Below are positions 2,320 to 37,880 of a DNA stretch of 64,000 bases, one piece after another. Origin of the DNA: Nemertoderma westbladi (taxonomy: Eukaryota > Animalia > Xenacoelomorpha); the NCBI GenBank assembly GCA_032718475.1, contig JAUCBJ010007706.1, forward strand, positions 1 to 64,000, written 5' to 3'. The notes beneath the pieces were generated by a model that worked only from the letters and a program-made list of their open reading frames with translations, was not told the origin of the DNA and did no database searches. How positions within the stretch are numbered: the first letter of the stretch is position 1; every line of letters begins with the position of its first letter. A program made the position numbers and the translations under genes.

Positions 2320-2509
2320 CTAAGGAAGAAAAACAAAATTGATAAGTTTTTAATTTTAGTTCATGATAGACAACTTTTTTAGAGGTTTTGCAATAATGAG
2401 CAAACGATAAATATATTAATTTTACTTGCATTTCAATAGTACATGTCAATTACAATCTGTTGTGGAATACAGTTATGAAGAAAATTTATACAACGATTAT
2501 GTTATACAA

Positions 2510-3240
2510 CAACGGTTGTCACCTTTCCTGTTCAATTTCTATCTGACATACCTATTCAAACAGTTCGAAAAGCCAAACCTTGGTATCCACATTAAAGATG
2601 TTTCTTTCTGCGCCATAAACTACGCTGATGACATTATAATCCTGGCGAACATGAAGTCACACCTCACTAGTTTACTGGAAATTTGTTCACAGTATTTCAG
2701 AGATCACAACCTCAAATTAAATGAGTCAAAGTGTCACTTCCTGTCCATTAACACCAAAGGCACTACGAACACCAATGACATGCTTACCCTCAAGGATAAA
2801 ACACTGCAATAAAAAAAAAGTGGCAAATATATGGGCATTCCCCACCCATCTCATGGCAAAACAATATCAAAGTTTGTAATTGGAAAAATTTGGGGCAATG
2901 TAGGTCTGATCTCGCACCGGGGTCTAACAATCAATCCCACTGGATGTAACTAAACTAGTTTGGAACATAATTTGCCTATCGAGCATTCTATATGGCTCCG
3001 ATTCTAGCTCTAATTTCTAGATAATAGAATAGCTAATAGATTCTGCTCTGATTCTGGCTCTAATTGACAAAATAGCTAAGGAGTTGCGTAAAGCGATGCG
3101 TCATATTATCGGAATGAACAACAGAATTTCAAACAAAGTGATATACAGTATCAGCTATTTGGAATGGACGTGGAATTACAGCTTAGATTGAATCAATTTC
3201 AATTAATATACAGATTATTTAATACAAAGAATCCTAAACT
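2510..3240 (+). mobile_element. Decayed non-LTR retrotransposon RT fragment inside the sulfotransferase intron (antisense to the gene)
   Basis: LSPFLFNFYL...INYADDIIILA...LKLNESKC, then KYMGI after a frameshift. Stops and frameshifts follow downstream. Confidence 0.75.
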
Positions 3241-3539
3241 ATAGCCTTTCTCTTTGGTAGTACATTGTGTTACCCTTGTGTGGGACCCTCAGTAGACATA
3301 TTTGCATCATATAATTTCACAGCGTGGAGATATTATAATAATCCGAATTTGTTATCCATTGCTTGTCCACCCTCCATATTCAACCAAACATTGTAGTCAA
3401 ACCGCAAAAATGGCCCAGACGGCGGATATCAGCCCCAAGGATCAATTCACCACTTGGTACTCGCAATCACTCTTGAACAATACAAACTACGCTATATCCA
3501 CTAGATTAATGATATTAAAGGAATTTCTAAATCCCCACA

Positions 3540-4100
3540 CGTAGCATTTTTCACATCTTTTGTGCCAGTGCTACGTCGCTTGATTAATAACAATTAATTC
3601 ACGAAATTTATTTTAATTTGATTTTAATTTTGAAATGTATATCACATAATAATATCTTAATGCCTAAAGAATAGTGAATGGTTTATTTCGAGTACTAACA
3701 TTGGCTTGAAATGCATACCGGTATGTATAATAATCTTCTAAATTCCTATACGCAGCATTTTTCACATCTATTTACTGGTGTCCGCGTAAAATCGATTTTT
3801 TGTATATCTGCTGTAAATATGTTTTCAGTGCAGTGCCATCGTAGCATATTTCACATCTATATACCGGTATCGTTTTTGGTTTTGTATATCGGCGGCAAAG
3901 AAGTTTTGGTACAGTGCCAGTGCTACGTCGCTTGTCTAATAGCAATTAATTCATGAAATTTATTTTTGATTTGAATTATGATTTATCATATGTATATCAC
4001 ATAATATGTCATATTGAATGGCTTATTTAGTGTACTATCATTGGCTTGAAAAGTATATTCATGTTGGAAAACATTGGCTTGAAATGTATATTAATGTTGG
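3540..4100 (+). repeat. Degenerate direct duplication (~350 bp offset)
   Basis: gtgccagtgctacgtcgcttg...caattaattca.gaaatttatttt occurs at ~3562 and ~3913; cattggcttgaaa is also repeated. Confidence 0.65.
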
Positions 4101-4788
4101 CCCCGTGTCATGGTATATCTTTGAACATACTGCCTACAATACTGCCTAATTTCTAATAATATTCAACATATGTGGCGCAACCGCCACATAATATCTACTT
4201 GTGGCAACCTAATAGAAATAGTATTATTTATTAGGACCAATTTATTCACTTTCTGATGTTATGTGCCCTTACTCTATTATTTTAAGCGTTATGTGCGTCG
4301 ATTTTAATGATTTTATTTGTGGCAATATTATAGCGCCGGGGACATCCCGGATTTTAATATAATATATATATGAACTTCACTCAATGTAGATGCTCCATGG
4401 GTGTGTTCCAGAATATTTTTTTAGTTTAAGGCACAGCGATATTTTTTATGGTAACAATCTTGTGAGGTTTAACGATAACGGCGGTTTTTATGCTTGTTAA
4501 TTTTTCGGGGTGCGGGCGGGTTAGATTTCTCAAAAAATGATACATACTGTATTTTGGAGTTTCGGTAACATAATTGCCTTCTTATTATTGATTTTCGGCA
4601 ATAAATATGTAAAACCAGTAATTAGTATTTTAAAATTTGACACCTTTATTTCGAACACTAAAATTTTCTTAATTGGAGGCACTTCCTGAAGTTGTACAGT
4701 ATGTGATGAAAATTGTCTCATCTGAGTCAAACTACCGGGGGGAATCACATATCGGCAAATTAATATCACTTATCCATGTTAAATCATC

Positions 4789-4945
4789 AATTAAGGGAAA
4801 GGAGCAGGTTAGAGTGAGTAACCAAAATAATAAACTAAAGTGACAGTTTTTTTTGGGAGTAATGTTGTAGTTATTTGCGCCGATTTTCCCCTGAAGTGGG
4901 ACGAATTTGGATTGGGTCGAGATTTCCACCCCCCCCCCCCCCCCC
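4789..4945 (+). repeat. Dispersed repeat, probable non-autonomous DNA-transposon end
   Basis: gggaaaggagcagg...aaccaaaa(c/t)aataaac...ttatttgcg.cga.tttcccctg.ag.ggga.gaattt...poly-C. Related copies at ~1560, 34106-34295, ~36232 and inverted at 62841-62896. Confidence 0.6.
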
Positions 4946-5057
4946 CTAGCCATACTTACCATTAGTTTAATTCTACTGTAGGCGGCCTACACACATGACT
5001 AATGGATAACATAATTTGTTGTATAAATTTTCTTTAACATATTAAATTACACATACC

Positions 5058-8000
5058 TACAGTATCCATACCTATCCTCCGATTACTATAACTTACCAGT
5101 TCATGTACTCGTACAGTATCCATACCTATCCTCCGATTACTATAACTTACCAGTTCATGTACTCGTACAGTATCCATACCTATCCTCCGATTAACTTACC
5201 AGTTCACTGTAACTTACCAGTTCGTGTATTCGTACAGTATCCATACCTATCCTCCGATTATCTTACCAGTTCCTGTATTCGTACAGTATCCATACCTATC
5301 CTCCGATTAACTTACCAGTTCCTGTATTCGTACAGTATCCATACCTATCCTCCGATTACTGTAACTTACCAGTTCGTGTACTCGTACAGTATCCATACCT
5401 ATCCTCCGATTACTGTAACTTACCAGTTCGTGTATTCGTACAGTATCCATACCTATCCTCCGATTATCTTACCAGTTCCTGTATTCGTACAGTATCCATA
5501 CCTATCCTCCGATTACTGTAACTTACCAGTTCGTGTACTCGTACAGTATCCATACCTATCCTCCGATTACTGTAACTTACCAGTTCGTGTATTCGTACAG
5601 TATCCATACCTATCCTCCGATTATCTTACCAGTTCCTGTATTCGTACAGTATCCATACCTATCCTCCGATTACTGTAACTTACCAGTTCGTGTATTCGTA
5701 CAGTATCCATACCTATCCTCCGATTAACTTACCAGTTCATTGTATTCGTACAGTATCCATACCTATCCTCCGATTAACTTACCAGTTCGTGTATTCGTAC
5801 AATATCCATACCTATCCTCCGATTAACTTACCAGTTCATGTATTCGTACAGTATCCATACCTATCCTCCGATTAACTTACCAGTTCATGTATTCGTACAG
5901 TATCCACTATCCATACCTATCCTCCGATTACTGTAACTTACCAGTTCATGTACTCGTACAGTATCCATACCTACCCTCCGATTAACTTACCAGTTCGTGT
6001 ACTCGTACAGTATCCATACCTATTCTCCGATTAACTTACCAGTTCGTGTATTCGTACAGTATCCATACCTATCCTCCGATTAACTTACCAGTTCATGTAT
6101 TCGTACAATATCCATACCTATCCTCCGATTAACTTACCAGTTCATGTATTCGTACAGTATCCATACCTATCCTCCGATTAACTTACCAGTTCATGTATTC
6201 GTACAGTATCCACTATCCATACCTATCCTCCGATTACTGTAACTTACCAGTTCATGTACTCGTACAGTATCCATACCTACCCTCCGATTAACTTACCAGT
6301 TCATGTATTCGTACATTATCCATACCTATTCTCCGATTAACTTACCAGTTCGTGTATTCGTACAGTATCCATACCTATCCTCCGATTAACTTACCAGTTC
6401 ATGTATTCGTACAGTATCAATACCTATCCTCCGATTAACTTACCAGTTCATGTATTCGTACAGTATCCATACCTATCCTCCGATGAACTTACCAGTTCAT
6501 GTATTCGTACAGTATCCATACCTATCCTCCGATTAACTTACCAGTTCATGTATTCGTACAGTATCCATACCTATCCTCCGATTAACTTACCAGTTCATTG
6601 TATTCGTACAGTATCCATACCTATTCTCCGATTAATTTACCAGTTCGTGTATTCGTACAGTATCCATACCTATCCTCCGATTAACTTACCAGTTCATGTA
6701 TTCGTACAGTATCCACTATCCATACCTATCCTCCGATTACTGTAACTTACCAGTTCATGTACTCGTACAGTATCCATACCTACCCTCCGATTAACTTACC
6801 AGTTCATGTATTCGTACAGTATCCATACCTATTCTCCGATTAACTTACCAGTTCGTTTATTCGTACAGTATCCACTATCCATACCTATCCTCCGATTAAC
6901 TTACCAGTTCATGTATTCGTACAGTATCCATACCTATTCTCCGATTAACTTACCAGTTCGTGTATTCGTACAGTATCCATACCTATCCTCCGATTAACTT
7001 ACCAGTTCATGTATTCGTACAGTATCCATACCTATTCTCCGATTAATTTACCAGTTCGTGTATTCGTACAGTATCCATACCTATCCTCCGATTAACTTAC
7101 CAGTTCATGTATTCGTACAGTATCCACTATCAATACCTATCCGCCGATTACTGTAACTTACCAGTTCATGTACTCGTACAGTATCCATACCTACCCTCCG
7201 ATTAACTTACCAGTTCATGTATTCGTACAGTATCCATACCTATTCTCCGATTAACTTACCAGTTCGTGTATTCGTACAGTATCCATACCTATCCTCCGAT
7301 TAACATACCAGTTCATGTACTCGTACAGTATCCATACCTACCCTCCGATTAACTTACCAGTTCATGTATTCGTACAGTATCCATACCTATTCTCCGATTA
7401 ACTTACCAGTTCGTGTATTCGTACAGTATCCATACATATCCTCCGATTACTGTAACTTACCAGTTCATGTACTCGTACAGTATCCATACCTACCCTCCGA
7501 TTAACTTACCAGTTCATGTATTCGTACAGTATCCATACCTATCCTCCGATTAACTTACCAGTTCGTGTATTCGTACAGTATCCATACCTATCCTCCGATT
7601 AACTTACCAGTTCGTGTACTCGTACAGTATCCATACCTATTCTCCGATTAACTTACCAGTTCGTGTATTCGTACAGTATCCATACCTATCCTCCGATTAC
7701 TGTAACTTACCAGTTCGTGTATTCGTACAGTATCCATACCTATCCTCCGATTAACTTACCAGTTCATGTATTCGTACAGTATCCATACCTATCCTCCGAT
7801 TAACTTACCAGTTCATGTATTCGTACAGTATCCATACCTATCCTCCGATTAACTGACCAGTTCATGTATTCGTACAGTATCAATACCTATCCTCCGATTA
7901 ACTTACCAGTTCGTGTATTCGTACAGTATCCATACCTATCCTCCGATTACTGTAACTTACCAGTTCGTGTATTCGTACAGTATCCATACCTATCCTCCGA

Positions 8001-11000
8001 TTAACTTACCAGTTCATGTATTCGTACAGTATCAATACCTATCCTCAGATTAACTTACCAGTTCGTGTATTCGTACAGTATCCATACCTATCCTCCGATT
8101 AACTTACCAGTTCATGTATTCGTACAGTATCAATACCTATCCTCCGATTAACTTACCAGTTCGTGTATTCGTACAGTATCCATACCTATCCTCCGATTAA
8201 CTTACCAGTTCATGTATTCGTACAGTATCCATACCTATCCTCAGATTAACTTACCAGTTCGTGTATTCGTACAGTATCCATACCTATCCTCCGATTAACT
8301 TACTAGTTCATGTATTCGTACAGTATCCATACCTATCCTCCGAATAACATACCAGTTCATGTATTCGTACAGTATCCATACCTATCCTCCGATTAACTTA
8401 CAAGTTCATGTATTCGTACAGTATCAATACCTATCCTCAGATTAACTTACCAGTTCATGTATTCGTACAGTATCCATACCTATCCTCCGATTAACTTACT
8501 AGTTCATGTATTCGTACAGTATCCATACCTATCCTCCGAATAACTTACCAGTTCATGTATTCGTACAGTATCCATACCTATCCTCCGATTAACTTACCAG
8601 TTCATTGTATTCGTACAGTATCCACTATCAATACCTATCCTCCGATTAACTTACCAGTTCATTGTATTCGTACAGTATCCACTATCAATACCTATCCTCC
8701 GATTAACTTACCAGTTCATTGTATTCGTACAGTATCCACTATCAATACCTATCCTCCGATTAACTTACCAGTTCATGTATTCGTACAGTATCCATACCTA
8801 TCCTCCGATTAACTTACCAGTTCATGTATTCGTACAGTATCCATACCTATCCTCCGATTAACTTACCAGTTCATGTATTCGTACAGTATCCATACCTATC
8901 CTCCGATTAACTTACCAGTTCATGTATTCGTACAGTATCCATACCTATCCTCCGATTAACTTACCAGTTCATGTATTCGTACAGTATCCATACCTATCCT
9001 CCGATTAACTTACCAGTTCATGTATTCGTACAGTATCAATACCTATCCTCAGATTAACTTACCAGTTCGTGTATTCGTACAGTATCTATACCTATCCTCC
9101 GATTAACTTTCCAGTTCATGTATTCGTACAGTATCCATACCTATCCTCCGATTAACTTACCAGTTCATGTATTCGTACAGTATCCATACCTATCCTCCGA
9201 TTACTGTAACTTACCAGATCGTGTATTCGTACAGTATCCATACCTATCCTCCGATTAACTTACCAGTTCATGTATTCGTACAGTATCCATACCTATCCTC
9301 CGATTAACTTACCAGTTCATGTATTCGTACAGTATCCATACCTATCCTCCGATTAACTTACCAGTTCATGTATTCGTACAGTATCAATACCTATCCTCCG
9401 ATTAACTTACCAGTTCGTGTATTCGTACAGTATCCATACCTATCCTCCGATTACTGTAACTTACCAGTTCGTGTATTCGTACAGTATCCATACCTATCCT
9501 CCGATTAACTTACCGGTTCATGTATTCGTACAGTATCAATACCTATCCTCAGATTAACTTACCAGTTCGTGTATTCGTACAGTATCCATACCTATCCTCC
9601 GATTAACTTATCAGTTCATGTATTCGTACAGTATCAATACCTATCCTCCGATTAACTTACCAGTTCGTGTATTCGTACAGTATCCATACCTATCCTCCGA
9701 TTAACTTACCAGTTCATGTATTCGTACAGTATCCATACCTATCCTCAGATTAACTTACCAGTTCGTGTATTCGTACAGTATCCATACCTATCCTCCGATT
9801 AACTTACTAGTTCATGTATTCGTACAGTATCCATACCTATCCTCCGAATAACTTACCAGTTCATGTATTCGTACAGTATCCATACCTATCCTCCGATTAA
9901 CTTACAAGTTCATGTATTCGTACAGTATCAATACCTATCCTCCGATTAACTTACAAGTTCATGTATTCGTACAGTATCAATACCTATCCTCCGATTAACT
10001 TACCAGTTCATGTATTCGTACAGTATCCATACCTATCCTCCGATTAACTTACCAGTTCATGTATTCGTACAGTATCCATACCTATCCTCCGATTAACTTA
10101 CCAGTTCATGTATTCGTACAGTATCCATACCTATCCTCCGATTAACTTACCAGTTCATGTATTCGTACAGTATCCATACCTATCCTCCGATTAACTTACC
10201 AGTTCATGTATTCGTACAGAATCAATACCTATCCTCAGATTAACTTACCAGTTCGTGTATTCGTACAGTATCCATACCTATCCTCCGATTAACTTTCCAG
10301 TTCATGTATTCGTACAGTATCCATACCTATCCTCCGATTAACTTACCAGTTCATGTATTCGTACAGTATCCATACCTATCCTCCGATTAACTTACCAGTT
10401 CATGTATTCGTACAGTATCAATACCTATCCTCAGATTAACTTACCAGTTCGTGTATTCGTACAGTATCCATACCTATCCTCCGATTAACTTTCCAGTTCA
10501 TGTATTCGTACAGTATCCATACCTATCCTCCGATTAACTTACCAGTTCATGTATTCGTACAGTATCCATACCTATCCTCCGATTAACTTACCAGTTCATG
10601 TATTCGTACAGTATCCATACCTATCCTCCGATTAACTTACCAGTTCATGTATTCGTACAGTATCAATACCTATCCTCCAATGAACTTACCAGTTCATGTA
10701 TTCGTACAGTATCCATACCTATCCTCCGATTAACTAACCAGTTCATGTATTCGTACAGTATCAATACCTATCCTCCGATTAACTTACCAGTTCATGTATT
10801 CGTACAGTATCCATACCTATCCTCCGATTAACTAACCAGTTCATGTATTCGTACAGTATCAATACCTATCCTCCGATTAACCTACCAGTTCATGTATTCG
10901 TACAGTATCCATACCTATCCTCCGATTAACTTACCAGTTCATGTATTCGTACAGTATCCATACCTATCCTCCGATTAACTTACCAGTTCATGTATTCGTA

Positions 11001-14000
11001 CAGTATCAATACCTATCCTCAGATTAACTTACCAGTTCGTGTATTCGTACAGTATCCATACCTATCCTCCGATTAACTTACCAGTTCATGTATTCGTACA
11101 GTATCCATACCTATCCTCCGATTAACTAACCAGTTCATGTATTCGTACAGTATCAATACCTATCCTCCGATTAACTTACCAGTTCATGTATTCGTACAGT
11201 ATCCATACCTATCCTCCGATTAACTAACCAGTTCATGTATTCGTACAGTATCAATACCTATCCTCCGATTAACCTACCAGTTCATGTATTCGTACAGTAT
11301 CCATACCTATCCTCCGATTAACTTACCAGTTCATGTATTCGTACAGTATCCATACCTATCCTCCGATTAACTTACCAGTTCATGTATTCGTACAGTATCC
11401 ATACCTATCCTCCGATTAACTTACCAGTTCATGTATTCGTACAGTATCAATACCTATCCTCAGATTAACTTACCAGTTCGTGTATTCGTACAGTATCCAT
11501 ACCTATCCTCCGATTAACTTACCAGTTCATGTATTCGTACAGTATCCATACCTATCCTCCGATTAACTTACCAGTTCATGTATTCGTACAGTATCCATAC
11601 CTATCCTCCGATTAACTTACCAGTTCATGTATTCGTACAGTATCAATACCTATCCTCAGATTAACTTACCAGTTCGTGTATTCGTACAGTATCCATACCT
11701 ATCCTCCGATTAACTTACCAGTTCATGTATTCGTACAGTATCAATACCTATCCTCCGATGCACTTACCAGTTCATGTATTCGTACAGTATCCATACCTAT
11801 CCTCCGATTAACTAACCAGTTCATGTATTCGTACAGTTTCCATACCTATCCTCCGATTAACTTACCAGTTCATGTATTCGTACAGTATCCATACCTATCC
11901 TCCGATTAACTTACCAGTTAGTGTATTCGTACAGTATCCATACCTATCCTCCGATTAACTTACCAGTTCATGTATTCGTACAGTATCCATACCTATCCTC
12001 CGATTAACTTACCAGTTCATGTATTCGTACAGTATCCATACCTATCCTCCGATTAACTTACCAGTTCATGTATTCGTACAGTATCCATACCTATCCTCCG
12101 ATTAACTTACCAGTTCATGTATTCGTACAGTATCAATACCTATCCTCAGATTAACTTACCAGTTCGTGTATTCGTACAGTATCCATACCTATCCTCCGAT
12201 TAACTTACCAGTTCATGTATTCGTACAGTATCCATACCTATCCTCCGATTAACTTACCAGTTCATGTATTCGTACAGTATTCATACCTATCCTCCGATTA
12301 ACTTACCAGTTCATGTATTCGTACAGTATCCATTCCTATCCTCCGATTAACTTACCAGTTCATGTATTCGTACAGTATCAATACCTATCCTCAGATTAAC
12401 TTACCAGTTAGTGTATTCGTACAGTATCCATACCTATCCTCCGATTAACTTACCAGTTCATGTATTCGTACAGTATCCATACCTATCCTCCGATTAACTT
12501 ACCAGTTCATGTATTCGTACAGTATCCATACCTATCCTCCGATTAACTTACCAGTTCATGTATTCGTACAGTATCAATACCTATCCTCAGATTAACTTAC
12601 CAGTTCGTGTATTCGTACAGTATCCATACCTATCCTCCGATTAACTTACCAGTTCATGTATTCGTACAGTATCAATACCTATCCTCCGATTAACTTACCA
12701 GTTCATGTATTCGTACAGTATCCATACCTATCCTCCGATTAACTTACCAGTTCATTGTATTCGTACAGTATCCATACCTATCCTCCGATTAACTTACCAG
12801 TTCCTGTATTCGTACAGTATCCATACCTATCCTCCGATTAACTTACCAGTTCATGTATTCGTACAGTATCAATACCTATCCTCAGATTAACTTACCAGTT
12901 CGTGTATTCGTACAGTATCCATACCTATCCTCCGATTAACTTACCAGTTCATGTATTCGTACAGTATCCATACCTATCCTCCGATTAACTTACCAGTTCA
13001 TGTATTCGTACAGTATCAATACCTATCCTCAGATTAACTTACCAGTTCGTGTATTCGTACAGTATCCATACCTATCCTCCGATTAACTTACCAGTTCGTG
13101 TATTCGTACAGTATCCATACCTATCCTCCGATTAACTTACCAGTTCATGTATTCGTACAGTATCCATACCTATCCTCCGATTAACTTACCAGTTCCTGTA
13201 TTCGTACAGTATCCATACCTATCCTCCGATTAACTTACCAGTTCATGTATTCGTACAGTATCAATACCTATCCTCAGATTAACTTACCAGTTCATTGTAT
13301 TCGTACAGTATCCATACCTATCCTCCGATTAACTTACCAGTTCATGTATTCGTACAGTATCAATACCTATCCTCCGATTAACTTACCAGTTCATGTATTC
13401 GTACAGTATCCATACCTATCCTCCGATTAACTTACCAGTTCATTGTATTCGTACAGTATCCATACCTATCCTCCGATTAACTTACCAGTTCCTGTATTCG
13501 TACAGTATCCATACCTATCCTCCGATTAACTTACCAGTTCATGTATTCGTACAGTATCAATACCTATCCTCCGATTAACTTACCAGTTAGTGTATTCGTA
13601 CAGTATCCATACCTATCCTCCGATTAACTTACCAGTTCGTGTATTCGTACAGTATCCATACATATCCTCCGATTACTGTAACTTACCAGTTCATGTACTC
13701 GTACAGTATCCATACCTACCCTCCGATTAAATTACCAGTTCATGTATTCGTACAGTATCCATACCTATCCTCCGATTAACTTACCAGTTCGTGTATTCGT
13801 ACAGTATCCATACCTATTCTCCGATTAACTTACCAGTTCGTGTATTCGTACAGTATCCATACATATCCTCCGATTACTGTAACTTACCAGTTCATGTACT
13901 CGTACAGTATCCATATCCACCCTCCGATTAACTTACCAGTTCATGTATTCGTACAGTATCCATACCTATCCTCCGATTACTGTAACTTACCAGTTCGTGT

Positions 14001-17000
14001 ATTCGTACAGTATCCATACCTATCCTCCGATTAACTTACCAGTTCATGTATTCGTACAGTATCCATACCTATCCTCCGATTAACTTACCAGTTCATGTAT
14101 TCGTACAGTATCCATACCTATCCTCCGATTAACTTACCAGTTCATGTATTCGTACAGTATCAATACCTATCCTCAGATTAACTTACCAGTTCGTGTATTC
14201 GTACAGTATCCATACCTATCCTCCGATTAACTTACCAGTTCATGTATTCGTACAGTATCCATACCTATCCTCCGATTAACTTACCAGTTCATGTATTCGT
14301 ACAGTATCCATACATATCCTCCGATTACTGTAACTTACCAGTTCATGTACTCGTACAGTATCCATATCCACCCTCCGATTAACTTACCAGTTCATGTATT
14401 CGTACAGTATCCATACCTATCCTCCGATTACTGTAACTTACCAGTTCGTGTATTCGTACAGTATCCATACCTATCCTCCGATTAACTTACCAGTTCATGT
14501 ATTCGTACAGTATCCATACCTATCCTCCGATTAACTTACCAGTTCATGTATTCGTACAGTATCCATACCTATCCTCCGATTAACTTACCAGTTCATGTAT
14601 TCGTACAGTATCAATACCTATCCTCAGATTAACTTACCAGTTCGTGTATTCGTACAGTATCCATACCTATCCTCCGATTAACTTACCAGTTCATGTATTC
14701 GTACAGTATCCATACCTATCCTCCGATTAACTTACCAGTTCATGTATTCGTACAGTATCCATACCTATCCTCCGATTAACTTACCAGTTCATGTATTCGT
14801 ACAGTATCCATTCCTATCCTCCGATTAACTTACCAGTTCATGTATTCGTACAGTATCAATACCTATCCTCAGATTAACTTACCAGTTAGTGTATTCGTAC
14901 AGTATCCATACCTATCCTCCGATTAACTTACCAGTTCATGTATTCGTACAGTATCCATACCTATCCTCCGATTAACTTACCAGTTCATGTATTCGTACAG
15001 TATCCATACCTATCCTCCGATTAACTTACCAGTTCATGTATTCGTACAGTATCAATACCTATCCTCAGATTAACTTACCAGTTCGTGTATTCGTACAGTA
15101 TCCATACCTATCCTCCGATTAACTTACCAGTTCATGTATTCGTACAGTATCAATACCTATCCTCCGATTAACTTACCAGTTCATGTATTCGTACAGTATC
15201 CATACCTATCCTCCGATTAACTTACCAGTTCATTGTATTCGTACAGTATCCATACCTATCCTCCGATTAACTTACCAGTTCCTGTATTCGTACAGTATCC
15301 ATACCTATCCTCCGATTAACTTACCAGTTCATGTATTCGTACAGTATCAATACCTATCCTCAGATTAACTTACCAGTTCGTGTATTCGTACAGTATCCAT
15401 ACCTATCCTCCGATTAACTTACCAGTTCATGTATTCGTACAGTATCCATACCTATCCTCCGATTAACTTACCAGTTCATGTATTCGTACAGTATCAATAC
15501 CTATCCTCAGATTAACTTACCAGTTCGTGTATTCGTACAGTATCCATACCTATCCTCCGATTAACTTACCAGTTCGTGTATTCGTACAGTATCCATACCT
15601 ATCCTCCGATTAACTTACCAGTTCATGTATTCGTACAGTATCCATACCTATCCTCCGATTAACTTACCAGTTCCTGTATTCGTACAGTATCCATACCTAT
15701 CCTCCGATTAACTTACCAGTTCATGTATTCGTACAGTATCAATACCTATCCTCAGATTAACTTACCAGTTCATTGTATTCGTACAGTATCCATACCTATC
15801 CTCCGATTAACTTACCAGTTCATGTATTCGTACAGTATCAATACCTATCCTCCGATTAACTTACCAGTTCATGTATTCGTACAGTATCCATACCTATCCT
15901 CCGATTAACTTACCAGTTCATTGTATTCGTACAGTATCCATACCTATCCTCCGATTAACTTACCAGTTCCTGTATTCGTACAGTATCCATACCTATCCTC
16001 CGATTAACTTACCAGTTCATGTATTCGTACAGTATCAATACCTATCCTCCGATTAACTTACCAGTTAGTGTATTCGTACAGTATCCATACCTATCCTCCG
16101 ATTAACTTACCAGTTCGTGTATTCGTACAGTATCCATACATATCCTCCGATTACTGTAACTTACCAGTTCATGTACTCGTACAGTATCCATACCTACCCT
16201 CCGATTAAATTACCAGTTCATGTATTCGTACAGTATCCATACCTATCCTCCGATTAACTTACCAGTTCGTGTATTCGTACAGTATCCATACCTATTCTCC
16301 GATTAACTTACCAGTTCGTGTATTCGTACAGTATCCATACATATCCTCCGATTACTGTAACTTCCAGTTCATGTACTCGTACAGTATCCATATCCACCCT
16401 CCGATTAACTTACCAGTTCATGTATTCGTACAGTATCCATACCTATCCTCCGATTAACTTACCAGTTCGTGTACTCGTACAGTATCCATACCTATTCTCC
16501 GATTAACTTACCAGTTCGTGTATTCGTACAGTATCCATACCTATCCTCCGATTACTGTAACTTACCAGTTCGTGTATTCGTACAGTATCCATACCTATCC
16601 TCCGATTAACTTACCAGTTCATGTATTCGTACAGTATCCATACCTATCCTCCGATTAACTTACCAGTTCATGTATTCGTACAGTATCAATACCTATCCTC
16701 CGATTAACTTACCAGTTCGTGTATTCGTACAGTATCCATACCTATCCTCCGATTAACTTACCAGTTCATGTATTCGTACAGTATCCATACCTATCCTCAG
16801 ATTAACTTACCAGTTCGTGTATTCGTACAGTATCCATACCTATTCTCCGATTAACTTACCAGTTCGTGTATTCGTACAGTATCCATACCTATCCTCCGAT
16901 TACTGTAACTTACCAGTTCGTGTATTCGTACAGTATCCATACCTATCCTCCGATTAACTTACCAGTTCATGTATTCGTACAGTATCCATACCTATCCTCC

Positions 17001-20000
17001 GATTAACTTACCAGTTCATGTATTCGTACAGTATCCATACCTATCCTCCGATTAACTTACCAGTTCATGTATTCGTACAGTATCAATACCTATCCTCCGA
17101 TTAACTTACCAGTTCGTGTATTCGTACAGTATCCATACCTATCCTCCGATTAACTTACCAGTTCATGTATTCGTACAGTATCCATACCTATCCTCAGATT
17201 AACTTACCAGTTCGTGTATTCGTACAGTATCCATACCTATCCTCCGAATAACTTACCAGTTCATGTATTCGTACAGTATCCATACCTATCCTCCGATTAA
17301 CTTACAAGTTCATGTATTCGTACAGTATCAATACCTATCCTCCGATTAACTTACCAGTTCATGTATTCGTACAGTATCCATACCTATCCTCCGATTAACT
17401 TACCAGTTCATGTATTCGTACAGTATCCATACCTATCCTCCGATTAACTTACCAGTTCATGTATTCGTACAGTATCCATACCTATCCTCCGATTAACTTA
17501 CCAGTTCATGTATTCGTACAGTATCCATACCTATCCTCCGATTAACTTACCAGTTCATGTATTCGTACAGTATCCATACCTATCCTCCGATTAACTTACC
17601 AGTTCATGTATTCGTACAGTATCAATACCTATCCTCAGATTAACTTACCAGTTCGTGTATTCGTACAGTATCCATACCTATCCTCCGATTAACTTACCAG
17701 TTCATGTATTCGTACAGTATCCATACCTATCCTCCGATTAACTTACCAGTTCATGTATTCGTACAGTATCCATACCTATCCTCCGATTAACTTACCAGTT
17801 CATGTATTCGTACAGTATCAATACCTATCCTCAGATTAACTTACCAGTTCGTGTATTCGTACAGTATCCATACCTATCCTCCGATTAACTTACCAGTTCA
17901 TGTATTCGTACAGTATCAATACCTATCCTCCGATGAACTTACCAGTTCATGTATTCGTACAGTATCCATACCTATCCTCCGATTAACTAACCAGTTCATG
18001 TATTCGTACAGTATCAATACCTATCCTCCGATTAACTTACCAGTTCATGTATTCGTACAGTATCCATACCTATCCTCCGATTAACTAACCAGTTCATGTA
18101 TTCGTACAGTATCAATACCTATCCTCCGATTAACTTACCAGTTCATGTATTCGTACAGTATCCATACCTATCCTCCGATTAATTTACCAGTTCATGTATT
18201 CGTACAGTATCCATACCTATCCTCCGATTAACTTACCAGTTCATGTATTCGTACAGTATCCATACCTATCCTCCGATTAACTTACCAGTTCATGTATTCG
18301 TACAGTATCAATACCTATCCTCAGATTAACTTACCAGTTCGTGTATTCGTACAGTATCCATACCTATCCTCCGATTAACTTACCAGTTCATGTATTCGTA
18401 CAGTATCCATACCTATCCTCCGATTAACTTACCAGTTCATGTATTCGTACAGTATCCATACCTATCCTCCGATTAACTTACCAGTTCCTGTATTCGTACA
18501 GTATCCATACCTATCCTCCGATTAACTTACCAGTTCATGTATTCGTACAGTATCCATACCTATCCTCCGATTAACTTACCAGTTCATGTATTCGTACAGT
18601 ATCAATACCTATCCTCAGATTAACTTACCAGTTCGTGTATTCGTACAGTATCCATACCTATCCTCCGATTAACTTACCAGTTCATGTATTCGTACAGTAT
18701 CCATACCTATCCTCCGATTAACTTACCAGTTCATGTATTCGTACAGTATCCATACCTATCCTCCGATTAACTTACCAGTTCCTGTATTCGTACAGTATCC
18801 ATACCTATCCTCCGATTAACTTACCAGTTCATGTATTCGTACAGTATCCATACCTATCCTCCGATTAACTTACCAGTTCCTGTATTCGTACAGTATCCAT
18901 ACCTATCCTCCGATTAACTTACCAGTTCATGTATTCGTACAGTATCAATACCTATCCTCAGATTAACTTACCAGTTCATTGTATTCGTACAGTATCCATA
19001 CCTATCCTCCGATTAACTTACCAGTTCATGTATTCGTACAGTATCAATACCTATCCTCCGATTAACTTACCAGTTCATGTATTCGTACAGTATCAATACC
19101 TATCCTCCGATTAACTTACCAGTTCATGTATTCGTACAGTATCCATACCTATCCTCCGATTAACTTACCAGTTCATTGTATTCGTACAGTATCCATACTT
19201 ATCCTCCGATTAACTTACCAGTTAGTGTATTCGTACAGTATCCATACCTATCCTCCGATTAACTTACCAGTTCGTGTATTCGTACAGTATCCATACATAT
19301 CCTCCGATTACTGTAACTTACCAGTTCATGTACTCGTACAGTATCCATACCTACCCTCCGATTAAATTACCAGTTCATGTATTCGTACAGTATCCATACC
19401 TATCCTCCGATTAACTTACCAGTTCGTGTATTCGTACAGTATCCATACCTATTCTCCGATTAACTTACCAGTTCGTGTATTCGTACAGTATCCATACATA
19501 TCCTCCGATTACTGTAACTTCCAGTTCATGTACTCGTACAGTATCCATATCCACCCTCCGATTAACTTACCAGTTCATGTATTCGTACAGTATCCATACC
19601 TATCCTCCGATTAACTTACCAGTTCGTGTACTCGTACAGTATCCATACCTATTCTCCGATTAACTTACCAGTTCGTGTATTCGTACAGTATCCATACCTA
19701 TCCTCCGATTACTGTAACTTACCAGTTCGTGTATTCGTACAGTATCCATACCTATCCTCCGATTAACTTACCAGTTCATGTATTCGTACAGTATCCATAC
19801 CTATCCTCCGATTAACTTACCAGTTCATGTATTCGTACAGTATCAATACCTATCCTCCGATTAACTTACCAGTTCGTGTATTCGTACAGTATCCATACCT
19901 ATCCTCCGATTAACTTACCAGTTCATGTATTCGTACAGTATCCATACCTATCCTCAGATTAACTTACCAGTTCGTGTATTCGTACAGTATCCATACCTAT

Positions 20001-23000
20001 TCTCCGATTAACTTACCAGTTCGTGTATTCGTACAGTATCCATACCTATCCTCCGATTACTGTAACTTACCAGTTCGTGTATTCGTACAGTATCCATACC
20101 TATCCTCCGATTAACTTACCAGTTCATGTATTCGTACAGTATCCATACCTATCCTCCGATTAACTTACCAGTTCATGTATTCGTACAGTATCCATACCTA
20201 TCCTCCGATTAACTTACCAGTTCATGTATTCGTACAGTATCAATACCTATCCTCCGATTAACTTACCAGTTCGTGTATTCGTACAGTATCCATACCTATC
20301 CTCCGATTAACTTACCAGTTCATGTATTCGTACAGTATCCATACCTATCCTCAGATTAACTTACCAGTTCGTGTATTCGTACAGTATCCATACCTATCCT
20401 CCGATTAACTTACCAGTTCATGTATTCGTACAGTATCCATACCTATCCTCCGAATAACTTACCAGTTCATGTATTCGTACAGTATCCATACCTATCCTCC
20501 GATTAACTTACAAGTTCATGTATTCGTACAGTATCAATACCTATCCTCCGATTAACTTACCAGTTCATGTATTCGTACAGTATCCATACCTATCCTCCGA
20601 TTAACTTACCAGTTCATGTATTCGTACAGTATCCATACCTATCCTCCGATTAACTTACCAGTTCATGTATTCGTACAGTATCCATACCTATCCTCCGATT
20701 AACTTACCAGTTCATGTATTCGTACAGTATCCATACCTATCCTCCGATTAACTTACCAGTTCATGTATTCGTACAGTATCCATACCTATCCTCCGATTAA
20801 CTTACCAGTTCATGTATTCGTACAGTATCAATACCTATCCTCAGATTAACTTACCAGTTCGTGTATTCGTACAGTATCCATACCTATCCTCCGATTAACT
20901 TACCAGTTCATGTATTCGTACAGTATCCATACCTATCCTCCGATTAACTTACCAGTTCATGTATTCGTACAGTATCCATACCTATCCTCCGATTAACTTA
21001 CCAGTTCATGTATTCGTACAGTATCAATACCTATCCTCAGATTAACTTACCAGTTCGTGTATTCGTACAGTATCCATACCTATCCTCCGATTAACTTACC
21101 AGTTCATGTATTCGTACAGTATCAATACCTATCCTCCGATGAACTTACCAGTTCATGTATTCGTACAGTATCCATACCTATCCTCCGATTAACTAACCAG
21201 TTCATGTATTCGTACAGTATCAATACCTATCCTCCGATTAACTTACCAGTTCATGTATTCGTACAGTATCCATACCTATCCTCCGATTAACTAACCAGTT
21301 CATGTATTCGTACAGTATCAATACCTATCCTCCGATTAACTTACCAGTTCATGTATTCGTACAGTATCCATACCTATCCTCCGATTAATTTACCAGTTCA
21401 TGTATTCGTACAGTATCCATACCTATCCTCCGATTAACTTACCAGTTCATGTATTCGTACAGTATCCATACCTATCCTCCGATTAACTTACCAGTTCATG
21501 TATTCGTACAGTATCAATACCTATCCTCAGATTAACTTACCAGTTCGTGTATTCGTACAGTATCCATACCTATCCTCCGATTAACTTACCAGTTCATGTA
21601 TTCGTACAGTATCCATACCTATCCTCCGATTAACTTACCAGTTCATGTATTCGTACAGTATCCATATCTATCCTCCGATTAACTTACCAGTTCATGTATT
21701 CGTACAGTATCAATACCTATCCTCAGATTAACTTACCAGTTCGTGTATTCGTACAGTATCCATACCTATCCTCCGATTAACTTACCAGTTCATGTATTCG
21801 TACAGTATCAATGCCTATCCTCCGATGAACTTACCAGTTCATGTATTCGTACAGTATCCATACCTATCCTCCGATTAACTAACCAGTTCATGTATTCGTA
21901 CAGTATCCATACCTATCCTCCGATTAACTTACCTGTTCATGTATTCGTACAGTATCCATACCTATCCTCCGATTAACTTACCAGTTAGTGTATTCGTACA
22001 GTATCCATACCTATCCTCCGATTAACTTACCAGTTCATGTATTCGTACAGTATCCATACCTATCCTCCGATTAACTTACCAGTTCATGTATTCGTACAGT
22101 ATCCATACCTATCCTCCGATTAACTTACCAGTTCATGTATTCGTACAGTATCCATACCTATCCTCCGATTAACTTACCAGTTCATGTATTCGTACAGTAT
22201 CAATACCTATCCTCAGATTAACTTACCAGTTCGTGTATTCGTACAGTATCCATACCTATCCTCCGATTAACTTACCAGTTCATGTATTCGTACAGTATCC
22301 ATACCTATCCTCCGATTAACTTACCATTTCATGTATTCGTACAGTATCCATACCTATCCTCCGATTAACTTACCAGTTCATGTATTCGTACAGTATCCAT
22401 TCCTATCCTCCGATTAACTTACCAGTTCATGTATTCGTACAGTATCAATACCTATCCTCAGATTAACTTACCAGTTCGTGTATTCGTACAGTATCCATAC
22501 CTATCCTCCGATTAACTTACCAGTTCATGTATTCGTACAGTATCCATACCTATCCTCCGATTAACTTACCAGTTCATGTATTCGTACAGTATCCATACCT
22601 ATCCTCCGATTAACTTACCAGTTCATGTATTCGTACAGTATCAATACCTATCCTCAGATTAACTTACCAGTTCGTGTATTCGTACAGTATCCATACCTAT
22701 CCTCCGATTAACTTACCAGTTCATGTATTCGTACAGTATCAATACCTATCCTCCGATTAACTTACCAGTTCATGTATTCGTACAGTATCCATACCTATCC
22801 TCCGATTAACTTACCAGTTCATTGTATTCGTACAGTATCCATACCTATCCTCCGATTAACTTACCAGTTCCTGTATTCGTACAGTATCCATACCTATCCT
22901 CCGATTAACTTACCAGTTCATGTATTCGTACAGTATCAATACCTATCCTCAGATTAACTTACCAGTTCGTGTATTCGTACAGTATCCATACCTATCATCC

Positions 23001-23520
23001 GATTAACTTACCAGTTCATGTATTCGTACAGTATCCATACCTATCCTCCGATTAACTTACCAGTTCATGTATTCGTACAGTATCAATACCTATCCTCAGA
23101 TTAACTTACCAGTTCGTGTATTCGTACAGTATCCATACTTATCCTCCGATTAACTTACCAGTTCGTGTATTCGTACAGTATCCATACCTATCCTCCGATT
23201 AACTTACCAGTTCATGTATTCGTACAGTATCCATACCTATCCTCCGATTAACTTACCAGTTCCTGTATTCGTACAGTATCCATACCTATCCTCCGATTAA
23301 CTTACCAGTTCGTGTATTCGTACAGTATCCATACCTATCCTCCGATTAACTTACCAGTTCATTGTATTCGTACAGTATCCATACCTATCCTCCAATTAAC
23401 TTACCAGTTCGTATACTCGTACAGTATCCATACCTATCCTCCGATTACTGTAACTTACCAGTTCGTGTATTCGTACAGTATCCATACCTATCCTCCGATT
23501 AACTTACCAGTTCGCGTATT
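5058..23520 (-). repeat. 18.5 kb tandem array of a 49-bp unit (~370 copies) derived from the sulfotransferase exon/intron junction
   Basis: Minus-strand unit gtaagttaatcggaggataggtatggatactgtacgaatac(a)(t/c)gaactg. Length variants of 50, 54 and 56 bp occur. The array runs directly into the coding exon at 23508-23520. Confidence 0.97.
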
Positions 23521-23967
23521 TGATTGGTATTTTTGTAGTTTCGAAAATCGTAGATCGAGACGATGTCTATTAAGAAATTCAAACTTCCCAGACGAGGCAA
23601 ATTTACACTGAAATATATCACCAAGCAACGGCAGTAAATGTTGTCTCTCGATGTGGCGGTTATTCGTACAGAAATTGAGGCCTTTCTCGCATTTAATATC
23701 AAAAATTTCCTCATATTTAGACACATTTTTTGCTATTAGTTGAGGTAAAACAGCCAGTGGTTCAAACAAATAGAATATATCTCGATGCGCGTTTAATGTC
23801 TCGCCCAGAAATGTGCTCCCTGATTTGTAGAAGCTACTAATTACAACGACTTTCCGCTTTGTCTTTGCCTCTTGCGTTACGTATTTACAAGCCCAGAATA
23901 AACAACAGATCGTCAGAATAATGTAAACAGATTTTCTTCTTACTTTGGTAATCATTTTTTTCTGCAT
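23508..23967 (-). CDS. Carbohydrate sulfotransferase (CHST1-7/GlcNAc6ST-like), 5' coding exon; type II Golgi membrane protein
   Basis: Basic N-tail, TM segment SVYIILTICCLFWAC, 5'-PSB motif SFYKSGSTFLGE and HRDIFYLFEPL. Donor CTG|GTAAGT at 23508/23507. A pyrimidine tract plus CAG at 23964-23962 suggests the exon starts at 23961 and uses the ATG at 23955. Confidence 0.9.
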
Positions 23968-26611
23968 TTGGAAAAATGAAGACGTGAAATTATACAGAAG
24001 TTGCTATAACAACATTTAGAATCACAAAAAACTTGTAACAAAATCAAGTTTATAATATAGTCACAGATAGTGAGTGCATATATTAGTCCCCCTACATTAT
24101 CATTGTGCAGTGGGAAGGGCATGCATGAATTTGGAATATTATTATAAATATGTAACAGCTTGATTACAAAAATCTATGCTACTTATTTAAATGAGCATGT
24201 GTCACACTACAAACTACATGGACAATTAGCTTCCTGTAGTTCTGGGTATTGCTGCAAACAAATCAATGCATTGTGGTTCCACAACATATTTGTCTCTACA
24301 ACAGATACGATGATATACAGACCTATTTGATGTAAAAATGACTTGTGTGTGTGTCCCTCAAGGTGACACTTTCTTCCTGTGACATTAATTATTGTGGTGG
24401 TCTATGCACTACGAATGTTTATTGGTAAACATTATATTGATGGGTTATGATTGATATTGATGGATTTATGGGAAAGTACAACCTGCGGTGATACTGTCTG
24501 TACTACGGTAGAAGTAGGCCTAGAGCAGAACCACAAAATACACTTGAGACAGACCTAGACTTTTGAGATATTTAATGGTAGGCCAGGGCGTAAGACAAAG
24601 ACAAGTTACGTATTACCAAGTTTGTAATAAATAATAAATATAAGGTGAATTGAGGTGAAAGTGAAAAATCAGTAAAATTTGTACTTCATAATGAAATTTA
24701 GCTGACTTAATTTTTGAAATGCCGCCACTCAAAAGTGATTTTTATGACGTTCGTTTGGAAAAGTTTATTTTGCATTTTATTGTTATTTCTTATATTACTT
24801 AATTTGCCTTTGGCTCTAGAATCCCTGATTGTCTAACTGGTACCGGTACTGGTACCGGTATCAACGGTGTTGTTGATAACAATACCACTTAATTTTAACA
24901 ACAATTAATTACATATTGTACAGTAAATTTATTGTCACGCTTCCAGTAAATTTATTGTCAACGCTTCCTCCGCTGCCGGGGAATTAGTCAATCACGCAAT
25001 GAAACTTAAATAGTTCTTACTGTTCAATAATCGCTTATATATTAATAATTACTTTTAGTTTTAAGCGAGATCGGTTGGTAGTGCTTTTTATCGTAGTTAT
25101 TTATCACAATCAATTCAACCTCTATTTCCATTGGTTGTCCTCCTTGATTTTACGTTTTCATTGGTTGAATATGTTTCTACCAAATACTTTATGTTATGAG
25201 TAGGCTTACGTCTGTTATCAGTAACGGTGGTATTAATTACAATTACGACCACTAGGGGTCGTCCTAATCAAATACTGATGACGCAATACTTAGCTGTTTA
25301 ATCAGCATCACAATTGCCCCCTGTGGGGCGAGTCAAAACTGCGAGCCATCAGCGAACTGTTATAATTATACTATGGCCGTTTTCTAAAAGCCTGCGTCTG
25401 TGACGGAAGCAATAATTGTGGGAAGCCAAGATATAACTAGCCATAGTATAATTATAATTGTTTGCTATTATGGCTTGCGGCTTTTGCTGCACGAAGGCCT
25501 CACTCGCTATGCCCCGGGTTAAATATTTCAATGCCCCATATCTGTACCGCTACTAATTATCTATGTGGGGTAGCTCGTCATTTGTATGACGAAGGCCATA
25601 CGCGAATTCAGCTTGGAAAATTTTTTAAACTTTTGCCATACAACATGTGTACCAAGTTTGATTAGATTTTATCGACGATTGATCGAGTTTTTAACGTTCA
25701 AATATTGGACACGTCAAAGTAACAGATCAACAGAACCACAGACACATTGGTTGTGATAGTGGTATAGGTCCTACCTATAGTTTACTTCCGTGGCTCTCCC
25801 CACAATAATTATAAAAATACTTGTCGCATTTTACTACTGTATTTGTGTAATTTTCCTGCCAGCATTTCTTGTTGCTCGTTGTTGGTCATTGTTGCTCGTT
25901 GTGCATTTTATCACCTACCGCTTAATCTACCATTTTCATTGTAACGAGTGGTAACATTCGGCCAAGTAGGTACTGTAGGGTTGAGCTGAGCACAATAGGT
26001 ATAGTGTTTGAGTACAGTGGCTGAAGATGTTGACAGCCCTTATTCAGGCCTGCGCTGCGGTAACACAGTAGGCCGGTCTACAGTATTTATAAAATTTCGC
26101 TTCAATTATGACATAGTCTCTGTAGGTGGGTTCTTGCCCATGTCACCGGTGGTACATTTGGTCACTTGGACATTAGGTCCAGCCAACAAAACAAACTCTT
26201 AATCTAAATATGACATAGGCCTATAAAAGGGTAGGTGCTAAAATGCACAACGAGAATTACTGAATTAGAATTACTGTACTTGACAATTATAATTACTAAT
26301 AATAGGGTTGTGCCTGACCAACAAACCCCAACAAAAACACAGCTTGTTACTACAGTACTACAGTATGTACAGTAGACCTGCTGTATGGTGGGCGTGCTTC
26401 AACGATGTTATGGCCAATAATAGTTTACTGGTGTATCGTAATGGTATACATTCTGTAGGCCTCCCCTGTCTGACTCTGCGGGCAGGACAGATTCCGCTGT
26501 TCCACCGGTACCATTCCGTTGGTGGGGTTTAAAATCTCATCCTTAATTACCCTAAAATGGTATTTAAAAAAAAAGTTAATGTAAAGCATCATTTTTGTGT
26601 GACGGAGCATA

Positions 26612-27175
26612 GAGCCCCTTAATGTCTATTTAATAATATTGGTAATGTTTGCATGGAGTCCCTTAATGTCTATTTAATAATATTGGTAATGTTTGCATGG
26701 AGTCCCTTAATGTCTATTTAATAATATTGGTAATGTTTGCATGGAGTCCCTTAATGTCTATTTAATAATATTGGTAATGTTTGCATGGAGTCCCTTAATG
26801 TCTATTTAATAATATTGGTAATGTTTGCATGGAGTCCCTTAATGTCTATTTAATAATATTGGTAATGTTTGCATGGAGTCCCTTAATGTCTATTTAATAA
26901 TATTGGTAATGTTTGCATGGAGTCCCTTAATGTCTATTTAATAATATTGGTAATGTTTGCATGGAGTCCCTTAATGTCTATTTAATAATATTGGTAATGT
27001 TTGCATGGAGTCCCTTTATGTCTATTTAATAATATTGGTAATGTTTGCATGGAGTCTCTTAATGTCTATTTAATAATATTGGTAATGTTTGCATGGAGTC
27101 CCTTAATGTCTATTTAATAATATTGGTAATGTTTACATGGAGTCCCTTAATGTCTAATTAATAATATTGGTAATG
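26612..27175. repeat. 44-bp minisatellite, ~13 copies
   Basis: Unit ggagtcccttaatgtctatttaataatattggtaatgtttgcat, near-identical copies. Confidence 0.95.
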
Positions 27176-27789
27176 GTTTGGTTACTAAATTGGTATTGCA
27201 TAGTTATTATAAATGCTGTTGAGTACGTGCACTGACATAGTTTCAGCTAAATGAAGCAACATATAACTTATTGGGTACGATGAGTGAGTATCCATAGTGA
27301 TAATGTATATTTACTGTATTATTTATTTATATTTAACGAATCTCCATCAGATGTATTTTGTTAACAAAAAACTGCTCTGCCCTCTGATCTACAGTATATT
27401 ATTATTAGGTTGGCAGTGATAGGGAGATACATACAACTGTACTGTCATGAATGCACAGTAATGAAGTATCTATATCAATCAAACCTCACTGTAAAATAAT
27501 ATATGGGCGTTTCCAAGAATTTAGGGAATTGCATGGAAGGCAGTCAGCAGTGAGCGGTGTACTAATACGTATGGCTCAAATAAGTTTGCCAAGTATCCTA
27601 TTCAAACTCAACGGCAGTAGGTGGTACTTACATGTGAACAATCGGTGATCCTTAAGGTAGCATGACGATTCATTTATAAGAGATACCGGTAACAAAGCTC
27701 AAGAATGGCAATCACAAACCTTTTTGGCACTTCATATATAATTCATCATCTATCATTATGCTATTTTGTGTAGTTGTTTATCCGTTGTT

Positions 27790-36416: not shown

Positions 36417-36663
36417 GAATTTGAATTTATTTATTTCCTCAAAATTTATATAAAAAACAACAAACTAAACAATACCACAGAATCTGCTGGGTACTTTGGG
36501 TGGGCCGCCGCTATAGCAGAGCTAGTGTTGCCTTGGCCCACTCACATATAAGGAGGAAAATTTGGCAGGGCAAAAGTGATAAGTGCGGGAATATCATAAA
36601 AACTTAAATCGGTTGGGTGAACTGTGGCAACACTGGAGTGGCATCAGAGTGGTGTTGAGGCAA
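36417..36663 (-). mobile_element. 3' end of another LINE (L2/CR1-like), antisense, abutting RTE copy 1
   Basis: The minus strand reads LPQH..DAT-like terminal residues and a 3'UTR ending in aaataaataaattcaaattca. Confidence 0.35.
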
Positions 36664-37880
36664 TTAGAAGGATAATTGAAGAGTTATCAAAAAAGAAAGA
36701 CAGGCATCTGGCTGTTATCTTTGTTGACTTCTTCAAGGCCTTTGATTCAGTCTCTCGCTCACGTATGTTCAGCATACTTTCATTATATGGGATTCCTGAT
36801 GAAATTATTGCAGCAATCAGATCAGTATACGATGGTTCGACAACATTTGTGTCTACTGTTGATGGTGACACAGAACCATTTGAAGTGTTATGGGGCGTCC
36901 TCCAAGGAGACACACTTGCACCATTCTTGTTCATTATTGTGGTTGACTATGTTCTACGCATGTCCTTAGATCATTATAATGATGATGGGATGGGGTGATG
37001 ATAACTCCACCTACTGGCTCCAGAAGTCGAGGAAATCCTGCCAAGTACCTAACTGATCTAGACTTTGCTGATGACTTAGGAGTCATTAGAATCATTAGAG
37101 GGAGCCCAACGGCTCCTCAGCACATTAGTACATGCTGCTTCTAGTGTTGGTCTTTTTATTAACTCCAGAAAGACCAAAATTCTGACAGTTAACTTTGAAA
37201 GTCCTCAGCAAGTCTCTGATCGGATGAGCATAAGCTCAAAGGATGGTATGCTTGAGCATGTGGACGACTTCTGTTACCTGGGATCATGGATCCGGACGTC
37301 AGGTGAGGACCTTCGAATACGTAAGGGAAAGGCATGGGCAGCCTTGAATAGGCTTTCCAGGATTTGGAAGTCACCGAGAATTAATCGGAAACTTAAGGTC
37401 CGATTATTTGGAGCAGCAGTAGTTCCAGTACTCCTCTACGGGAGTCCATGCTGGGCTCTAACTGCTGAGGACACCAAATCTCTGGATGGCACATTCACAA
37501 GAATGCTACGCCGGGTTCATTGTGTCAAGTACAATGCAGACATCTGCAACCAGACACTATATAACATTGGAGGTGTCTCATTGGTTCCCCCAAGCTTGAC
37601 ACTAGAACAAAATCGCCTCCGCTTTGCAGGACATTGCTTTCGCCGTGAGGACCAGCCAGTGCATAATCTTGTACTTTGGCAGCCTCATGGAGTGAATAAG
37701 CATGGTGGACAGCCCATGACTTTCTTGAGACGCATCTTAAAGGACACTCGCCTTAAAGAAGCGGATGATCTAGCAAATGTCATGGGTGATAGGGAGTTGT
37801 GGCGGTGCAATTTTGTTGACAAGCCGGCACAGCATTCTTAAAAATGCAGCTGCAATGCAGAATACCGATCCTAGTAGTAT
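36664..37880 (+). mobile_element. RTE-clade LINE, 5'-truncated copy 1 (frameshifted)
   Basis: FVDFFKAFDSV, GVLQGDTLAPFLF, LDFADDL, FCYLGSWI, PVLLYGS, RLRFAGHC. Short 3'UTR with a (TAG)n tail. A 5-nt duplication at ~36990 breaks the frame. Confidence 0.93.

Follow-up and report, generated by a model that had tools for sequence, protein, structure and literature searches.

A 373-unit minisatellite reiterates the 5' splice site of a putative sulfotransferase gene in Nemertoderma westbladi

We analyzed a 64,000-nucleotide stretch of the Nemertoderma westbladi genome (positions 1 to 64,000 of contig JAUCBJ010007706.1, assembly GCA_032718475.1; hereafter, the window) and characterized a minisatellite that fills most of one intron of a putative Golgi carbohydrate sulfotransferase gene. 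Its 373 units repeat the gene's own exon/intron junction, such that hundreds of near-consensus 5' splice sites (donors) follow the authentic one. The reading that we favor, to which we give a probability of about 0.68, is that this junction-spanning array was born locally, that the gene is spliced at the first donor, and that the remaining copies are tolerated and largely neutral.

Structure of the array

Tandem Repeats Finder reported a period of 49 and 369.4 copies at 5210-23520. We split the minus strand on a 13-nt anchor, which yielded 371 pieces of 71 unit types; resolving two double-length pieces brought the total to 373 units and moved the end of the array to 5058. The minisatellite occupies 5058-23522 on the minus strand, 18.5 kb of head-to-tail units with a 49 bp consensus. 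A sequence-only reading of this DNA had described about 370 tandem donors in one intron, each unit being composed of the end of the exon and the start of the intron. Our count agrees with that description, and the composition can be refined to 15 exon-derived and 34 intron nucleotides. The last 15 nt of exon and unit are identical at 13/15 positions for a C variant of the unit and at 12/15 for the commoner T consensus, and the remaining 34 unit bases are the first 34 nt of the intron. The first unit spans the authentic exon/intron border, and its donor is the gene's own 5' splice site, CTG/GTAAGT (the slash marks the border), at 23502-23510 on the minus strand.

The donor is well preserved across the array. 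GT is intact in 367 of the 373 units, GTAAGT in 342 and the whole of CTG/GTAAGT in 331, in line with the earlier statement that most units keep it. Elsewhere in the window, over 45.5 kb, the same strand has 16 GTAAGT motifs, so chance can be excluded as the source of the repeated donors. The 9-mer matches the U1-complementary consensus, as generally given, at eight of nine positions. A second donor-like motif, AG/GTATGG, had been ascribed to every unit; it is present, but with 277 occurrences in the 373 units (AGGTAT occurs 354 times). Units 2-24 all carry an intact donor, and the first donor change is found in unit 25. We also looked for a CBS-like protective change in unit 2 and found none.

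Mean divergence from the consensus is 1.14 bases per unit, which suggests a young array; the last 31 units, at its 3' end, are the most diverged. Series of unit types recur as blocks: 37 units at an offset of 50 units, 24 at 65 and 23 at 64, with scores of 33, 24 and 23 against a maximum of 6 among 50 shuffles. These patterns fit a young array that grew partly by block duplication, and some of the block copies could be assembly errors.

We note several further characteristics of the units. In 31 of them, including unit 2, the donor is followed by a 5-nt insertion, TA(C/T)AG. With it, the unit gains a sequence that is reverse-complementary to 7 nt found further on in that unit, which suggests a template switch at a quasi-palindrome. 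The commonest variant lies at unit position 49 (T in 240/372 units, C in 100/372) and is a CpG transition. The T, if copied back into the exon, would make a stop codon; the exon keeps C. At one synonymous site the exon differs from all units. A two-tier G-quadruplex-like motif is present in 245/373 units, and folding with quadruplexes allowed gave the same predicted folds. Directly past the array there are donor-like sites at 5057 and 4959 (minus strand), the latter reading GTAAGTAT.

The host gene and its intron

Four sequencing runs (X1-X4), none of them recorded as RNA and all represented by assembled contigs only, contain part of the downstream exon of the gene, which lies on the minus strand. 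The upstream coding exon (23508-24100; ATG at 23967, 153 codons) is covered over this whole range by records 9 and 10 of run X2; its limit at 24100 is simply the end of the X2 contig and not an established 5' end. The first half of the enzyme, together with a predicted membrane anchor, is encoded here. The last exon (1300-2319; X2 records 8 and 9) adds 225 further codons up to a stop at 1642-1640, followed by a 3' untranslated region (UTR) that reaches at least 1300. Between the two exons lies an intron of 21,188 nt, 87% of which is array. The other 2,738 nt (2320-5057) hold seven AATAAA and seven ATTAAA hexamers, donor-like sites and dispersed repeats, and end in a 3' splice site with a pyrimidine tract (2318-2345), which is bridged in DNA by an X4 contig covering 2252-2545. 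Of all AGs in the non-array intron, the acceptor at 2320/2319 has the richest pyrimidine context, with 15 pyrimidines in the 17 upstream positions. This acceptor and donor 23508/23507 are both in phase 1, in keeping with the phase compatibility stated earlier, and joining them gives one open frame of 382 codons.

Exon 2 matches the Pfam domain Sulfotransfer_1 (PF00685, E=3.7e-10), whereas exon 1 alone has no Pfam match. A search of protein representatives returned 249 relatives at about 30% identity. Among the eight top matches whose names we looked up, seven were CHST1- or CHST3-like, from sea cucumbers and hemichordates, and one was unnamed. Both exons were matched by 118 of 163 homologues, in colinear order in 117 of them. 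We accordingly describe the host gene as a putative CHST1/3-like Golgi carbohydrate sulfotransferase; it shares PF00685 with CHST1 and CHST3, and at only about 30% identity it is too distant for substrate or orthology to be fixed. A word-indexed homologue search with exon 2 gave 125 candidates, none significant, and collagen IV matches from a search of PDB sequences were weak and judged to be due to chance.

Two other observations concern this gene. A strong acceptor-like site at 23963-23961 (minus strand) lies just after the first ATG and is followed by an in-frame second ATG at 23955, making an upstream non-coding exon possible; the X2 contig passes this site without splicing. A short element found in the intron at 4776-4816 and in the 3' UTR at 1553-1596 has very high depth in all four runs, with values in the tens of thousands near 4783-4911, and probably represents the terminus of an abundant mobile element.

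Splicing at the first donor

The library label of run X2 is 'DNA?'. Its contigs cover 23508-24100 and exon 2, with no cover on the array ends, on 2332-2460 or above 24147, a pattern from which X2 is likely to be RNA-derived. Within this run, a 485-nt contig aligns with its letters 1-202 on 23709-23508 and its letters 202-485 on 2320-2037. The loose end of this contig at 23508 consists of the first 30 bases of exon 2. The contig thus places the junction of the first donor, 23508, to 2319 across 21,188 nt, the spliced product that the sequence-only reading had put forward as a check. Use of the authentic first donor is thus supported, in one contig of one run taken to be RNA. An intronless DNA copy of the gene would yield an identical contig; the absence of flanking cover speaks against such a copy, and among the matches listed the loose end is found in X2 alone.

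Among the matches listed, we found no junction from an internal donor to 2319, in contigs in which rare isoforms are invisible. If the first donor is passed over, the reading frame runs into a stop codon at intron nt 18-20; hence any use of a downstream donor would give a truncated 159-residue product that lacks the half encoded by exon 2. RNA structure was rejected as the basis of donor choice: the predicted unpaired probability is 0.35 at the authentic donor versus 0.44-0.65 at the next 12 intact donors.

Conservation of the donors and possible functions

The sequence-only reading had proposed testing whether the GTAAGT positions vary less than other positions of the unit. In 372 of the 373 units (the last unit runs into the flank), we counted 14 distinct substitution alleles in the nine donor positions versus 31 in the other 40, which is no reduction (P of as few or fewer, 0.998). 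Counting donor variation by units gave P=0.44. Nothing in these counts points to selection for donor maintenance.

A recursive, or ratchet-point, splice site is an acceptor with its pyrimidine tract directly followed by a donor. Most units contain AG/GT, chiefly as AGGTAT, which is the formal core of such a site, and the inserted TA(C/T)AG adds a further AG in 31 units. However, a pyrimidine tract is found nowhere in the array: across its 1,174 AGs there is no acceptor-like site, the longest pyrimidine run being 4 and the maximum being 9 pyrimidines in the 17 upstream positions. Moreover, a splice from an internal donor to 2319 would consume the only strong acceptor and leave no AG for re-splicing. 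Intron removal in steps by way of internal donors, recursive or otherwise, which had been proposed earlier, is extremely improbable in an array without acceptors.

We also considered a U1-loading platform maintained by selection, in which the repeated U1 sites would guard against premature polyadenylation, aid elongation or sequester U1. The close match of the donor to the U1 consensus and its intactness in 331 units are what such a platform would call for, and the 14 AATAAA/ATTAAA hexamers in the last 2.7 kb of the intron could be shielded by the final units. That U1 protects introns has been established for human, mouse and fly (PMC5499120; here and below, published work is cited as far as its accessible text extends). 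However, the donor positions show no conservation beyond that of the other unit positions, and the youth of the array accounts for their intactness. The array, itself the cause of the intron's length, would have a single AATAAA to protect within its own 18.5 kb, where ATTAAA is absent. The corresponding junction of a paralogue, described below, also seems to lack the array. We regard this explanation as very improbable.

Depth and origin of the array

The repeat is present at high depth in the DNA runs X1, X3 and X4, which derive from two samples (X3 and X4 from the same one). Rough depth ratios to single-haplotype contigs correspond to about 270-460 units in X1, 50-120 in X3 and about 10 in X4; X3 and X4 differ about ten-fold although they are one sample, so these ratios are not copy numbers. 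The window itself may derive from X1. A pure assembly artefact was rejected on account of the high depth in two samples and the ordered blocks of 71 unit types, with the exact length unconfirmed. An exact search of metagenome contigs with a 27-nt unit pattern returned no matches.

Beside the window-like copy, X1, X3 and X4 contain one or more paralogues that are 85-90% alike over 1756-2305 and 23533-23864, and X2 contains a paralogue-like contig; these sequences point to a small, recently expanded sulfotransferase family. For 23533-23834, X1, X3 and X4 have either a paralogue-like contig only or no cover, which proves nothing and was not used. The contig with the paralogue's exon extends 208-226 nt, neither onto the array end nor, judging from bin depths, visibly onto exon 2. 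This suggests that the paralogue has an intron near the same place without an array, with 30 bases visible and their alignment ambiguous.

These data bear on the alternative of an external origin, in which a repeat from another genomic site, by inserting on or close to the junction, would have contributed the exon end and donor seen today. Alignment between the gene and its paralogue, ~90% alike upstream, ends 25 nt short of the donor, two exon positions differ from every unit, and the paralogue's visible bases can be aligned either to the end of the exon or to the start of exon 2, all of which would be compatible with such an insertion. Against this, the rest of the window contains no unit match longer than 11 nt, and the depth ratios of X1, although rough, are of the same order as the array itself and leave little room for other large arrays. 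The paralogue's genomic contig, which seems not to enter exon 2, in turn suggests an older intron nearby. We therefore give insertion from elsewhere only a small chance, and consider it likely, from the make-up of the unit, that the array was born from the gene's own exon/intron junction, as the sequence-only reading had held.

Other features of the window

On the plus strand, an uninterrupted open frame of 613 codons at 27952-29793 begins with a signal-peptide-like sequence and has no Pfam match and no usable Atlas match. It contains nine 29-residue acidic Gly/Glu/Ser repeats, most of which end in Arg-Arg, and its product looks like a secreted, proteolytically processed precursor. Other minisatellites, with units of 44, 21, 41, 40 and 22 bp and 6-21 copies, lie at 26607-27180, 33567-33734, 38141-38994, 39382-39617 and 63737-63874, respectively. 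The array of 40-bp units (39382-39617) overlaps the start of a frame of a long interspersed nuclear element (LINE). A Pfam search was used to annotate mobile-element frames at 2420-2812 (plus strand), 36621-37841, 39476-41397, 41657-42760, 46250-50899 and 52750-53961. They comprise LINE reverse-transcriptase pieces (the one at 2420-2812 lies in the intron of the sulfotransferase gene), a gag-like frame carrying DUF1759 and two frames that lack a Pfam match. LINE and BEL-type elements are both present in the window; together with the relatives of the sulfotransferase and its GT-AG intron, they point to an animal source.

Discussion

We propose that a 49-bp segment of 15 exon and 34 intron nucleotides was duplicated head to tail, and that the array would then have grown through slippage and through the copying of 23- to 37-unit blocks. 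The first donor may be chosen by position, as it is transcribed first and is nearest to the exon-defining elements upstream; human F7 offers experimental precedent for such a choice. With no acceptor between them, the 372 downstream units would define neither exons nor recursive sites. Use of a downstream donor would yield the 159-residue product, probably from an unstable mRNA, so selection would be expected to act on the fidelity of the first donor and not on the copies. Neutral expansion tolerated by splicing, which the sequence-only reading had offered as a fallback, is the account that our analysis supports; the functional roles that it had suggested find no support here.

Several points weigh against this account. 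With matching for base composition, the donor positions show an excess of alleles (P=0.014 over all alleles and 0.057 over those seen twice), where plain neutrality predicts none; 3 of 49 contiguous windows reach the donor's value, and the excess may be mutational or reflect weak selection against decoys. The per-unit conservation test itself has little power to reveal a function that resides in the entire array. None of the DNA contigs listed bridges the array to unique flank, and our search for other genomic copies of the unit covered the 64-kb window. The splicing evidence is one contig from one run labeled 'DNA?', from an individual that may or may not carry a long array. As contigs drop rare variants and decay would hide the use of decoys, this contig shows use of the first donor but gives no measure of its fidelity. 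Finally, in human ABCA7 a similar array does alter splicing with its length, through skipping of exon 19 (PMC5954066).

Arrays of this kind have been described before, and the novelty implied by the sequence-only reading does not hold (PMC1557585, PMC3087553, PMC5954066). In the 37-bp variable number tandem repeat (VNTR) of F7 intron 7, only the most upstream of five to nine identical donors is used (Borensztajn et al. 2006, PMC1557585). The pseudo-sites there were shown to be functional, and the authors report that those with a perfect match to the consensus can attract splicing. The sulfotransferase array resembles F7 in having its first unit on the exon/intron border, identical pseudo-donors downstream and use of the most upstream donor; it differs in having 373 units instead of 5-9 and donors one base off the consensus, and function of the pseudo-sites is known for F7 alone. 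The same report lists CBS intron 13 (15-20 units), 6-16 intron 2 (25 pseudo-sites), LMNB2 (10-15) and PDGF (16-18), in which an exon/intron junction is likewise reiterated, with unit numbers 14- to 37-fold lower. In CBS and 6-16, two downstream sites are used as well, whereas none was seen here at contig resolution. In amphioxus, 'mirage' minisatellites of Adh3 and the globins BflGb6 and BflGb9 duplicate exon/intron borders and leave regular splicing unaffected (PMC3087553). These share with our array an invertebrate host, concerted evolution and divergent cluster ends, but BflGb6 has 3-6 units, and length instability, shown there, is only hinted at here. The sulfotransferase array has the hallmarks of the F7, CBS and 'mirage' type: tandem units longer than about 10 bp, a border-spanning first unit, a reiterated splice site and, in the one contig of inferred RNA origin, persistence of authentic splicing.

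The closest counterpart in size is the VNTR of ABCA7 intron 18, whose unit begins with the donor GT of exon 18 and which reaches up to about 427 units and 10,678 bp (De Roeck et al. 2018, PMC5954066; PMC13747324). Use of its second donor retains one unit and introduces a premature stop, and this retention is independent of VNTR size (PMC5954066). Both arrays start at an exon's donor, contain hundreds of units and meet a stop upon use of the second donor. However, the ABCA7 unit, which starts at the GT, is C-rich and 25 bp long, while the sulfotransferase unit is 49 bp with 15 exon bases and a near-consensus donor; the latter array is longer (18.5 kb versus 10.7 kb), and an effect of length has been measured in ABCA7 only.

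By analogy, the sulfotransferase array, although neutral in origin, could modify expression as a side effect of its length, longer alleles lowering full-length mRNA so that copy number tunes enzyme dose. Leakage to decoy donors, slower removal of the intron or intron retention would each be a route. Every use of a decoy would give a null product, donor-changing alleles are slightly over-represented, the contrast between the X1 and X3 depth ratios is a weak hint of length variation, and skipping of ABCA7 exon 19 increases with VNTR size (PMC5954066). On the other side, the internal-donor junction is absent from the matches listed, the discrepancy within the X3/X4 sample deprives depth of meaning as copy number, and units 2-24 keep their donors, with no protective decay beside the real site. 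In addition, skipping of the kind seen for ABCA7 exon 19 is impossible for the downstream exon, which is the last of the gene. On balance we hold such a modifier to be unlikely, if credible. Somewhat less credible is a copy-number dial in which each added unit would be a further near-consensus U1 site whose use gives a dead transcript. Allele length, perhaps anywhere between tens and about 370 units, would then determine how much Golgi sulfotransferase is made, with the slight excess of donor-weakening variants as a record of selection against load.

The preferred reading, a tolerated and largely neutral array, therefore concerns a known kind of structure, both its architecture and its order of copy number having precedent, and no concept is changed by it. 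What is distinctive is the length of the array together with its near-consensus donors. We found no longer donor-reiterating array in the literature searched, which was mostly without subscription journals and supplements, and no further precedent there for satellite arrays of hundreds of donors or for cap-proximal donor choice. The gene thus constitutes an extreme natural test, in which 330 intact downstream donors, one base off the consensus and spaced at 49 nt over 18.5 kb, are set against an identical authentic donor. If the fidelity of the first donor is near complete, positional splice-site choice would be robust about 40-fold beyond the scale of F7; if leakage grows with length, the array would be an invertebrate counterpart of the ABCA7 VNTR.

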